Assembly (NCBI GenBank): GCA_029262375.1 | Contig: JAJCZM010000049.1 | Location: 3,992 to 67,991, forward strand | DNA from: Deltaproteobacteria bacterium | Lineage (GTDB): Bacteria; Desulfobacterota; Binatia; UBA1149; SPBQ01 | DNA: 64,000 bases | Direction of reading: 5' to 3' | Part shown: positions 52,420 through 60,376 of the stretch, piece after piece | Numbering within the stretch: the first letter of the stretch is position 1 | Layout of the letters: the number at the start of each line of letters is the position of its first letter | Notes under the pieces: model-generated | Seen by the model: the letters and a program-made list of their open reading frames with translations, nothing else | What the model was told of the DNA's origin: nothing | Databases searched by the model: none | Position numbers and translations under genes: made by a program

Positions 52420-54318
52420 CTAGCTCGCCAACTCGTCGGGCGAGAGTTCTTCCACCCTAACATCGACCGTCAGCGTTTCGGTTCCGGTGTCACCCTTGTA
52501 GATGGTCCCGGCAGTCGGTGTGGCATCGCGATAGTTACGACCGCATGCCACTCGAACATGATCGACACCGGCGATACACCCGTTCGTTGGATCGAATCCG
52601 CGCCAGCCGTTCCACGGTAGATAGAGTTCCGCCCACGCGTGCGATGCTTCGGACTGAATCTTATTCTCGTAGTTGCTGCCGGTGAAGATGTAACCGACGC
52701 GATATCGCGCCGGGAGCCCCAACAGCCGCGCAAGACAGATCATCAGATTCGCAAAGTCTTGGCAGACGCCTTGCCGACTCACGAACACGTCGTACGGCGT
52801 GGTTTCGAGCGTCGTCGATCCCGAGACGTACGCGAAGTCTCTATAGATGGTTTCGTTGAGCTCGAGAACGGTACAGTTCAAATCGTTATCGTTTCGTGCG
52901 GCGATGCTCAGCGCGAACTCGTTGAGCTCTTGCAGCTCGGTTTCGGGAAGCTCGACCGGCAGCAAATAGGGCGACATCATCTGCCGCTGCCACGGCATCC
53001 ACACGAGCGGCAACGTATCGCGTCGAGCCGACGATCTACCTGCCAGCGGTGGAGGCTCGAGAACGCGAATGACCGATCTCGCCGCAATCGTCAGTTCCGA
53101 GTATGGCATCGAGAGTTCGACGTAGCGCGAATGGTTGCCGAATACGTCCTCGAAGTCTTTGCTGGGCCCGTCTACCGAGTGCAGCAAGGAATGCTCGATA
53201 ACTGACTGGTAGTCATCGTGAACGGGGCGAAGCCGGTACACGTGAGCGCTGTGTTCCACAGGGCCGGTGTACTTGTAATTCGTCTCATGCGTGACCGACA
53301 GAATCCGCTCGGACGGGAGCGGCGAAACTCCCGGCGCGGACTGCGTCCCCGGGGCGTGAACGGAAACGGAATCGCCGACCTGCACAATCGGTCGAGTGAG
53401 TGCCGGGTCGGTCGATACTACGGAGCCTTGGGGCGACGTCGACACCGCGGCTTGTTGCGCATCAAGCTGTCGCGAACCAGCGAACGACCCGACCCCGGGA
53501 GACGAATTCTCGACCTGCTGATTGGGTGCGCTGTTCCAAACCACGGCGCCGCCGCGCAAGACGAGCGTTTGGCCGGGCAGCATGCGGATCCATGGCTCAT
53601 CGGACTGCGGCGCATTCGAAATGATGCTCATCGTCCGATTGCGGTCGAGCGAGCCCGTCAGCGCGATGACGAGTTCATCAAAATGCATTTCCTCAGTCGC
53701 GTGAGGCGGAACGCGCCGCAACCAATACAACGGATTGAAGTCGTTGCGGTCGCTTCGAACGATGATGTGACGACCGTCGGTGAAGACCATGTTGGCACTT
53801 CCCAGGTCGTTCACTTGGTCGAACATCGTTACAAGGTTCTCCCAACCGTACTCTTCGAGCGTCCTCGCTCCCTCCGTCCTCAACAGGGTCAACAACCAGC
53901 ACACGAGATGCTCGCTGTCGGTCTTGCCGATCGGCTCGAAAACGGGATTCACTCCGAGCGAAAAACTCTCGCGGAAGTCGTCGCGGAGGTCGCCGTTGTG
54001 CGCGAAGATCCAGTGGCGGCCCGCGTAGCTCTTGAGAAATGGCTGGGCATCTCGCTGGAGAGCCTTCTTGGTGGAACCGCGCAGGTGGCACACGAAACTA
54101 CTGGAGCGGAACCGTTCCCACTCGCGCAGCAACCCTGACATCGCGTCCTGCTCCGACGAATCGGGGTTCTTCAACACCACGGCGGTTTCGTCGTCGTTGG
54201 GGTACCAACCAAAGCCCCAGCCGAACTGGCCGGTCATCGCTTTCGGGCTGGAGTCTCGTCGAATCGTGAAGCCCGGTGAGGCTTCGTTATCGAAGGATAT
54301 GGCGATGAGGGTGCTCAT
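52420..54318 (-). CDS. Fusion protein: class II (Ntn) glutamine-amidotransferase-like domain + Bact_transglu_N + transglutaminase-core domain
   Basis: 632 aa. The N-terminus has MSTLIAISF...HLRGSTKK...WIFAHNGDL (GATase-II pattern). The C-terminus has GVCQDFANL...SHAWAELYL...GFDPTNG (Cys-His-Asp transglutaminase triad). Confidence 0.8.
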   Translation of the reverse strand: MSTLIAISFDNEASPGFTIRRDSSPKAMTGQFGWGFGWYPNDDETAVVLKNPDSSEQDAMSGLLREWERFRSSSFVCHLRGSTKKALQRDAQPFLKSYAGRHWIFAHNGDLRDDFRESFSLGVNPVFEPIGKTDSEHLVCWLLTLLRTEGARTLEEYGWENLVTMFDQVNDLGSANMVFTDGRHIIVRSDRNDFNPLYWLRRVPPHATEEMHFDELVIALTGSLDRNRTMSIISNAPQSDEPWIRMLPGQTLVLRGGAVVWNSAPNQQVENSSPGVGSFAGSRQLDAQQAAVSTSPQGSVVSTDPALTRPIVQVGDSVSVHAPGTQSAPGVSPLPSERILSVTHETNYKYTGPVEHSAHVYRLRPVHDDYQSVIEHSLLHSVDGPSKDFEDVFGNHSRYVELSMPYSELTIAARSVIRVLEPPPLAGRSSARRDTLPLVWMPWQRQMMSPYLLPVELPETELQELNEFALSIAARNDNDLNCTVLELNETIYRDFAYVSGSTTLETTPYDVFVSRQGVCQDFANLMICLARLLGLPARYRVGYIFTGSNYENKIQSEASHAWAELYLPWNGWRGFDPTNGCIAGVDHVRVACGRNYRDATPTAGTIYKGDTGTETLTVDVRVEELSPDELAS

Positions 54319-54372
54319 GAGTACTTGCTTCTCGAGGTCGGCTTAGCCGCTTGCCTCTGCCGGCGCAACGTC

Positions 54373-60000: not shown

Positions 60001-60376
60001 AGACCGACGCCATATCGTAACCTGCAATGGTCGGCGTGTTCCTCTCACTCCGACCGACACGCCCGGCGAATTCGTAGCCGGGGTACGCTATCGCGCGTGG
60101 CAGCCTCCGGCGTGCCTGCAGCCGACGATTCCGGTGCACACACCCCTCAAAATCGACCTGCTCGACACGTGGTCCGGACGTTCGATCGGCGGATGCACGT
60201 ATCACGTCTCCCACCCTGCCGGCCGCAACTACGAAACATTCCCCGTAAACGCTTTCGAAGCGGAAGCCCGACGCGCGGCCCGCTTCTTCGATACGGGACA
60301 TACGCCGGGCCCGATGGAAGTACCCACCGACGATCGCAATTCGGCGTTCCCGCTGACTCTCGACCTGCGGCGCTAG
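57020..60376 (+). CDS. Large transglutaminase-like protein with DUF2126-type C-terminal region
   Basis: The track ORF starts at 57002 (TTG). The ATG at 57020 gives [19 protein letters not shown], the usual family start. The transglutaminase core is [29 protein letters not shown]...[23 protein letters not shown]. Confidence 0.85.
   Translation: [1118 protein letters not shown]

Follow-up and report, generated by a model that had tools for sequence, protein, structure and literature searches.

Within a 64,000-nt stretch of contig JAJCZM010000049.1 from an uncultured deltaproteobacterium (the whole stretch is hereafter called the window), four neighbouring genes encode a circularly permuted ATP-grasp ligase, an alpha-E protein, a small transglutaminase-like protein with an extra N-terminal nucleophile (Ntn) domain, and a giant protein that joins a transglutaminase-like domain to a DUF2126 part. 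The cluster is intact and unremarkable, one more example of a widespread, cytoplasmic bacterial module made up of a COG2308 ATP-grasp, a COG2307 alpha-E, a COG1305 transglutaminase and an Rv2566-type giant. It falls into a well-populated sub-variant, distinguished by a YafJ/EgtC-like Ntn domain at the N-terminus of the small transglutaminase. We lean, if only slightly, towards the view that the set makes and cuts gamma-glutamyl-type amides and serves nitrogen economy. A preliminary description of the sequence had placed the four genes, with a 4-nt overlap between two of them and a divergent gap of 137 nt, and had named their domains; the map of open reading frames (ORFs) confirmed the layout, and Pfam, PDB profile and Foldseek searches supported the domain assignments. 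The features that mark the COG2308/COG2307/COG1305 module, an ATP-grasp gene, an alpha-E gene downstream of it and a transglutaminase with an intact catalytic triad, were all found; Anbu, often present in such operons but optional, was not. No signal peptide was evident in any of the four window proteins, all of which appear cytoplasmic from their sequences.

The fusion of Ntn and transglutaminase domains has ∼1,000 detectable relatives of the same architecture and occurs in at least 436 species genomes from many phyla, among others Myxococcota, Planctomycetota, non-photosynthetic Cyanobacteriota, Alphaproteobacteria, Gemmatimonadota, Vulcanimicrobiota and Actinomycetota. We counted its neighbours at 39 loci from other phyla that offered at least 8 kb on both sides of the fusion gene. 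ATP-grasp and alpha-E genes were present at 29 of these loci and DUF2126 at 29; all were present at 23 and none at 4, and at least one ligase partner was kept in 35/39. At six loci each, the fusion stood with one or the other ligase alone, and judged by these neighbourhoods it is a partner of either. Wherever the pair occurred (29/29), the ATP-grasp gene was directly followed by the alpha-E gene, within at least 14 gene orders overall. The order seen in the window, with the giant divergent from ATP-grasp, alpha-E and fusion, recurs in Planctomycetota and Bradymonadia. The components are also rearranged as units: at one locus (L030, 12754–15908) a transglutaminase gene and a separate DUF2126 gene take the place of the giant, and at two loci of Vulcanimicrobiota (L067:10001–13749 and L080:10001–13758) a DUF2126 gene lacking the transglutaminase directly follows the fusion gene, with no ATP-grasp or alpha-E gene within 10 kb. 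Such conserved linkage indicates that the module is real and not a chance adjacency. When 145 flanking ORFs, drawn from 35 loci, were searched against Pfam, no shared accessory family emerged, the most frequent family reaching only 4 ORFs (methyltransferases) and proteasome-family and glutaminase ORFs numbering two each; because no further shared flanking family was found, we take the module to consist of these four genes only.

Among close relatives the distribution is patchy, as expected of an accessory module. The source genome, an uncultured, 4.8-Mb, 87% complete metagenome-assembled genome (MAG) from a biofilm metagenome, holds one copy of the module. No part of it was found in 6/6 genomes of the same family, the fusion was absent from all 30 relatives' genomes examined, and most genomes of the same order are without any of the four genes; one other family of that order has two Mycobacterium-like sets, one with a fused ATP-grasp/alpha-E gene beside a DUF2126 giant, an arrangement also found in M. 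tuberculosis. Base composition gave no sign of recent transfer. Co-conservation in related genomes, on which the preliminary description had let its case depend, is therefore borne out across phyla, where 23/39 loci have the complete set, but not within the family or most of the order: it holds only where the genes exist.

The feature that sets this sub-variant apart is the N-terminal domain of the fusion protein. Residues 1–267 match Pfam GATase_4 (4e-58), and a Foldseek search with this part of an AlphaFold2 (AF2) model returned the YafJ-type structure 1te5 as best PDB match, with a template modelling (TM) score of 0.86, followed by EgtC (4zfk); beta-lactam synthetase was also matched. The model has a predicted local distance difference test (pLDDT) score of 78, falling to 25–32 over residues 268–334, a linker of ∼67 residues that differs in length and sequence among homologues. 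Beyond it, residues 335–632 match Bact_transglu_N (9e-17) and Transglut_core (9e-20) and resemble the transglutaminase-like cysteine protease of Cytophaga (PDB 3isr; profile 2e-19, fold TM 0.75), and the triad C519/H560/D576 is invariant in 32 homologues. Databases already label this fusion variant 'class II glutamine amidotransferase'. The N-terminal catalytic Cys of that class is nevertheless missing. Where 1te5 starts with MCELLGMS, the window fusion begins MSTLIAISFD, and a profile alignment sets MSELLA.. against MCELLG.. of 1te5. With an in-frame TAA 9 codons ahead of the fusion ATG, it is Ser2 that takes the nucleophile position.

To see how general this replacement is, we counted the nucleophile residue, located by motif match, over the 171 family members that could be placed. 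Ser was found in 99 and Thr in 67 (together 166/171, 97%), and Cys in none. The two residues come in two settings. Among database proteins with the nucleophile at position 2, directly behind the initiator Met, the residue was Ser in 47/50; among proteins with a preceding extension of at least 10 residues it was Thr in 44/47, and this propeptide-like extension ends, right in front of the Thr, in a conserved EH(Q/R/K)x motif. The pattern points to two ways of maturing a single N-terminal nucleophile. The positions that bind glutamine or a gamma-glutamyl group are kept in the homologues (R80 in 31/32, D134 in 31/32, E136 in 32/32), as is G109 of the oxyanion pair (32/32); its partner N108 is present in 24/32, the window included, and is Ser or Gln in the remaining 8. 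No synthase domain that could accept ammonia is present, the only fused partner being the transglutaminase-like domain. Because Ser or Thr, never Cys, occupies the nucleophile position in nearly the whole family, the sequences favour an Ntn amidohydrolase over an amidotransferase. The earlier term 'Ntn-amidotransferase-like' thus applies to the fold alone, as seen in the GATase_4 and 1te5 matches.

The remaining three proteins show the expected hallmarks of their families. The ATP-grasp ORF matches CP_ATPgrasp_2 (4e-164) and CP_ATPgrasp_1 (1e-142), and its residues 40–506 align to chain residues 9–473 of PDB 3n6x (9.8e-162). The alpha-E protein matches Pfam Alpha-E over its full length (1e-79) and retains the N-terminal ER motif (..ARYTERAE..); a sequence-based PDB search with it found no solved relative. 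Gln-rich C-terminal tails (SQSQSQS, QTQTQKQG, AAAQQ) are frequent in alpha-E homologues that adjoin fusions (for example at L029, L042 and L018). Across loci L001–L080, at least three Gln within the last 12 residues were found in 16/52 alpha-E proteins, compared with 0/50 ATP-grasp and 0/45 DUF2126 proteins; the window's own alpha-E tail (54373–54420) has no Gln. Such tails might supply donor sites for a transglutaminase, or be no more than low-complexity termini.

In the giant, the N-terminal part matches Bact_transglu_N (1e-25) and Transglut_core (4e-16) and, by Foldseek, again 3isr (E 4e-15, TM 0.72–0.74), with a triad C180/H229/D245 that is invariant in 24 homologues. The rest aligns to Pfam DUF2126 over profile positions 1–826 (1341 bits, E=0). 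Sequence-only PDB searches with the DUF2126 part found nothing. Foldseek, run with an AF2 model of pLDDT 80, gave weak but consistent matches to YbdK (1tt4), many glutamine synthetases (GS), gamma-glutamylmethylamide synthetase and 1-naphthylamine GS (E 4e-3 to 4e-2), and acidic, His and Arg positions are invariant, for example E332, E690, H737, H834-R835-E837 and E857-x-R859. On the strength of the modelled fold, the DUF2126 part is predicted to be a carboxylate–amine ligase of the glutamine-synthetase/gamma-glutamylcysteine-ligase type. The Rv2566 family has been defined by a transglutaminase-like domain joined to a carboxylate–amine ligase domain (Iyer, Burroughs & Aravind 2008, PMC2588565), and the giant shows this two-domain architecture in its Pfam matches, its AF2 model with Foldseek and its invariant residues. 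Within its DUF2126 domain lies a Pro/Ser/Ala-rich insert of ∼47 residues (residues 571–617; 58730–58870), which is predicted to be disordered (pLDDT 31–36) and at which the family consensus has almost no majority residue.

The set of ATP-grasp, alpha-E and transglutaminase has been described together with Anbu (Valas & Bourne 2008, PMC3235984), and was read by Iyer et al. 2009, as related in PMC6376114 and PMC5666114, as a system for peptide synthesis or tagging. A peptide-making or peptide-remodelling role, as put forward in the preliminary description, is essentially this published prediction (Valas & Bourne 2008; Iyer et al. 2008, 2009), in which the module synthesizes or modifies peptides (PMC2588565, PMC3235984, PMC6376114, PMC5666114). 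The claim that no substrate or product had been demonstrated also stood: our literature search on DUF2126, CP_ATPgrasp, Rv2411c, Rv2566, Anbu since 2019 and COG2308/2307 found no substrate and no paper mentioning DUF2126, and in a 2026 preprint Rv2411c and Rv2567 still figure among candidate ATP-binding proteins that await characterisation. What has been reported concerns biochemistry and regulation. The ATP-grasp protein of the Yersinia Anbu operon frees orthophosphate from ATP; peptidase activity was not seen with Anbu, and the proteins of the operon form no stable complexes (PMC6376114). In Burkholderia cenocepacia, the cluster I35_5080-83 is sigma-54/NtrC-dependent under nitrogen limitation (PMC5491218); according to a note in PMC3235984, no operon of Pseudomonas putida is induced more strongly under nitrogen limitation than the Anbu operon; and in marine metagenomes the abundances of the module's domains co-vary with urea-metabolism genes (PMC3597751).

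Compared with the Anbu-type operon (PMC3235984, PMC6376114, PMC5666114), the window shares the first three genes, their order, the coupling of ATP-grasp to alpha-E and the association of an Ntn-fold hydrolase with a transglutaminase. It differs in that no Anbu adjoins the cluster, the only proteasome-family (PF00227) match of the source genome lying on another contig (contig 44); in that its Ntn domain is of the YafJ/EgtC fold, fused N-terminally to the transglutaminase and with Ser as candidate nucleophile; and in the divergently linked Rv2566-type giant ligase. Mycobacterium tuberculosis Rv2566/Rv2567/Rv2569c likewise links a two-domain giant to an ATP-grasp/alpha-E unit and a second transglutaminase, but in the window ATP-grasp and alpha-E are separate genes and the second transglutaminase has the extra Ntn domain. 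The B. cenocepacia H111 cluster I35_5080-5083 (BCAM1233-1236) has the same components, a DUF404/407 ATP-grasp, a DUF403 alpha-E and two transglutaminase-like proteins, one of them large; no Ntn domain has been described for it (PMC5491218), and its sigma-54/NtrC control contrasts with the window, where no sigma-54 promoter was detectable. The fusion's Ntn domain itself shares its four-layer fold and its Arg, Asn-Gly and Asp-x-Glu positions with the stand-alone GATase_4 Ntn amidohydrolases YafJ/PA1307 (1te5) and EgtC (4zfj-4zfl), and departs from them in having Ser or Thr instead of Cys, in its fusion to a transglutaminase and, in one subfamily, in the propeptide-like extension. EgtC hydrolyses a gamma-glutamyl amide without ammonia transfer.

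These comparisons suggest a model in which each of two unrelated ATP-dependent ligases would turn a carboxylate into an acyl phosphate and then couple it with an amine. To our knowledge, every characterised GS-fold enzyme activates the gamma-carboxyl of glutamate, and the pocket of the Ntn domain is of the glutamine/gamma-glutamyl type; for these two reasons the activated group would probably be the glutamate gamma-carboxyl and the product a gamma-glutamyl-type amide or isopeptide bonds on a peptide or amine. Both thiol (transglutaminase) domains, whose active sites are papain-like and intact, may cut or transfer such bonds, and the Ser-Ntn domain would hydrolyse the gamma-glutamyl amide as EgtC does, a step thought to be carried out by the Thr-Ntn protein Anbu in canonical operons. 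By analogy with proteobacterial homologues, the physiological setting would be nitrogen scavenging or turnover.

Several observations weigh against this model. The gamma-glutamyl chemistry is argued by analogy of folds, and the Foldseek matches of the GS-like part have, besides the E values given above, low TM scores. The nitrogen link is likewise borrowed from Proteobacteria, and the window locus shows no sigma-54 promoter. At the nucleophile position, 5/171 sequences have a residue other than Ser or Thr, although at least 2 of these are probably motif mismatches. As we know of no class II glutamine amidotransferase (GATase)-fold enzyme with a hydroxyl nucleophile, the Ntn domain could be inactive. 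A strict replacement of Anbu by the Ntn domain is weakened too, because 2/35 loci also carry a proteasome-family neighbour. Our searches found no substrate, product or phenotype for any member of the module, and a 2026 study tried Rv2411c and Rv2567 for an unrelated activity only, with negative results.

The same genes can be read in other ways. In a pupylation-like tagging system, one or both ligases would modify side chains of target proteins, alpha-E possibly among them, with an amino acid or short peptide, and the transglutaminase-like and Ntn domains would remove or process the tag. The Pup-system enzymes PafA and Dop share their carboxylate–amine ligase superfamily with Rv2566/DUF2126 (PMC2588565), tagging with a deubiquitinase (DUB)-like Anbu was proposed by Iyer et al. 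2009 (as related in PMC6376114 and PMC5666114), and the Gln-rich tails of alpha-E, which the ligases lack, could be donor sites for the transglutaminase. We nonetheless consider tagging unlikely: no small Pup-like ORF occurs in the window cluster or in the neighbourhoods of the family (PMC2588565), the failure of Anbu-operon proteins to form stable complexes (PMC6376114) speaks against it, the window alpha-E tail is one of those without Gln, and a modified protein has never been reported. Less probable still is a nitrogen-rich reserve oligomer or polymer akin to cyanophycin, built by the two ligases as a two-bond repeat and degraded by the thiol peptidases and Ntn hydrolase when nitrogen is scarce. 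Cyanophycin metabolism does combine an ATP-grasp and a second ligase domain with a peptidase and a Thr-Ntn isoaspartyl dipeptidase, and the module's two different ATP-dependent ligase folds, its three hydrolase-type domains and the induction of homologues under nitrogen limitation resemble this scheme. The likeness is pure analogy, however; no such reserve is known in well-studied carriers (Pseudomonas, Mycobacterium, Synechococcus), and nitrogen starvation normally does not induce reserve synthesis. That four independent enzymes merely lie side by side is hardly credible: the absence of the genes from same-family relatives and the flanking methyltransferase, LysR, MgtE and RimK genes, unrelated to the module, would fit such a view, but linkage is kept across phyla through 14 gene orders, at least one ligase stays with the fusion at nearly all loci, and the same components undergo fusions and splits among themselves.

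A narrower question is whether the GATase_4-like domain works at all. It might be catalytically dead and serve the transglutaminase in substrate binding, regulation or oligomerization. Beta-lactam synthetase, which Foldseek retrieved, has such an inactive GATase-like domain at its N-terminus, devoid of the Cys; the lack of the nucleophile Cys from 171/171 sequences and the Ser or Gln at oxyanion position 108 in 8/32 homologues point the same way. We regard this as rather unlikely. A dead site would be expected to drift, yet 97% of sequences retain Ser or Thr, whose placement, Ser right at position 2 and Thr behind the conserved EH extension, is that of an N-terminal nucleophile, and R80, D134 and E136 are conserved. 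As this residue pattern fits an exposed hydroxyl nucleophile better than a decayed site, the domain is probably active. We tentatively propose, at somewhat less than an even chance, an active Ntn amidohydrolase with a hydroxyl nucleophile, with Ser freed by Met excision and Thr by autoproteolysis of the EH-containing propeptide, and with Anbu's cleavage of gamma-glutamyl amides as its task.

The coordinates of the cluster are collected in the table below; protein residues are numbered after the ORF list of the window, those of the giant from its ATG at 57020. This start, preferred in the preliminary description, gives the N-terminus MSIRVALHH, which is typical of the family. For the ATP-grasp gene the ORF bounds were reproduced, but the start at 56882 was not: the longest ORF opens there with TTG, the alignment with PDB 3n6x does not begin before ORF residue 40, and residue 14 is encoded by an ATG (56843). 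On these sequence grounds the true start is probably ATG 56843, which places TTG 56882 39 nt too far upstream and would widen the divergent gap from 137 to ∼176 nt. The stop codon of the ATP-grasp gene overlaps the start of the alpha-E gene in a 4-nt ATGA, as the coordinates show, and through this overlap the alpha-E gene is translationally coupled to the ATP-grasp gene; 54 nt separate the alpha-E gene from the fusion gene.

Coordinates in the window of the four module genes, their domains and the divergent intergenic region
Feature	Position	Strand	Remarks
Circularly permuted ATP-grasp ligase, COG2308 type	55350–56882	-	510-residue ORF; Pfam
Alpha-E protein, COG2307 type	54373–55353	-	326 residues; Pfam Alpha-E, full length
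Ntn + transglutaminase fusion gene	52420–54318	-	632 residues
Fusion N-domain, YafJ/EgtC-type Ntn (class II GATase) fold	53518–54318	-	Residues 1–267
Fusion linker, low-complexity, predicted disordered	53317–53517	-	Residues 268–334
Fusion transglutaminase-like part	52420–53316	-	Residues 335–632; Bact_transglu_N + Transglut_core
Giant ORF	57002–60376	+	1124 residues, or 1118 from ATG 57020
Giant N-terminal transglutaminase-like domain	57020–57859	+	Bact_transglu_N + Transglut_core
Giant DUF2126 part, carboxylate–amine ligase-like (Rv2566 family)	57845–60376	+	Pfam DUF2126
Divergent intergenic (promoter) region	56883–57019	.	137 nt

The divergent region contains an inverted repeat, ATATCCGT(N21)ACGGATAT, at 56913–56949, which could be a candidate regulator site; it carries little weight, as a rough estimate puts the number of such repeats that chance would produce over this length at ∼0.1. 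A search for sigma-54 promoters (TGGCAC-N5-TTGCW, at most two mismatches) gave 20 matches in the window compared with 22 expected, none of them in an intergenic region. Scans for the sigma-70 consensus, terminators and Rfam families were uninformative, with no sigma-70 consensus match or Rfam match in the divergent region. Searching sequencing runs for expression, we found the window sequence only in DNA runs of the biofilm metagenome. Outside the cluster, the flanking methyltransferase (51574–52332), the ORF at 50662–51459, the LysR gene and the RimK-type ATP-grasp operon were considered as further parts of the module and rejected, having no homologues near related clusters. A gene for an MgtE magnesium transporter adjoins the cluster (60416–61783 and 61859–63806 region, with the RimK-type operon). 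MgtE is also found at L018, L020, L034 and L038, in the closest lineage only, with 49–55% identity in the two closest.

The preliminary description had recommended this locus for functional work. That advice does not hold for the window itself: because its genome is an uncultured MAG and its closest relatives are without the cluster, the bench is better served by cultured carriers of the same architecture, among them Haliangium ochraceum DSM 14365, Asticcacaulis endophyticus KCTC 32296 (locus L074, with all four genes) and Engelhardtia mirabilis. Synechococcus elongatus and Caulobacter also carry family members. The window locus adds no new component to the known module. The most useful outputs of this analysis are instead the Ser/Thr maturation dichotomy, the service of the fusion to either ligase and the identification of cultured carriers, of which the first two narrow the hypotheses towards the making and breaking of gamma-glutamyl amides. 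If the Ntn domain is indeed an amidohydrolase with a hydroxyl nucleophile, it would be the first that we know of within the class II amidotransferase fold, and covalent trapping on the Ser or Thr would offer a handle for identifying the substrate of the module. With carriers that include M. tuberculosis, Pseudomonas, Burkholderia and cyanobacteria, the module is among the most widespread bacterial gene sets without known chemistry; as it is among the genes most induced by nitrogen starvation in Proteobacteria, solving it would fill a real gap in bacterial nitrogen or peptide metabolism.

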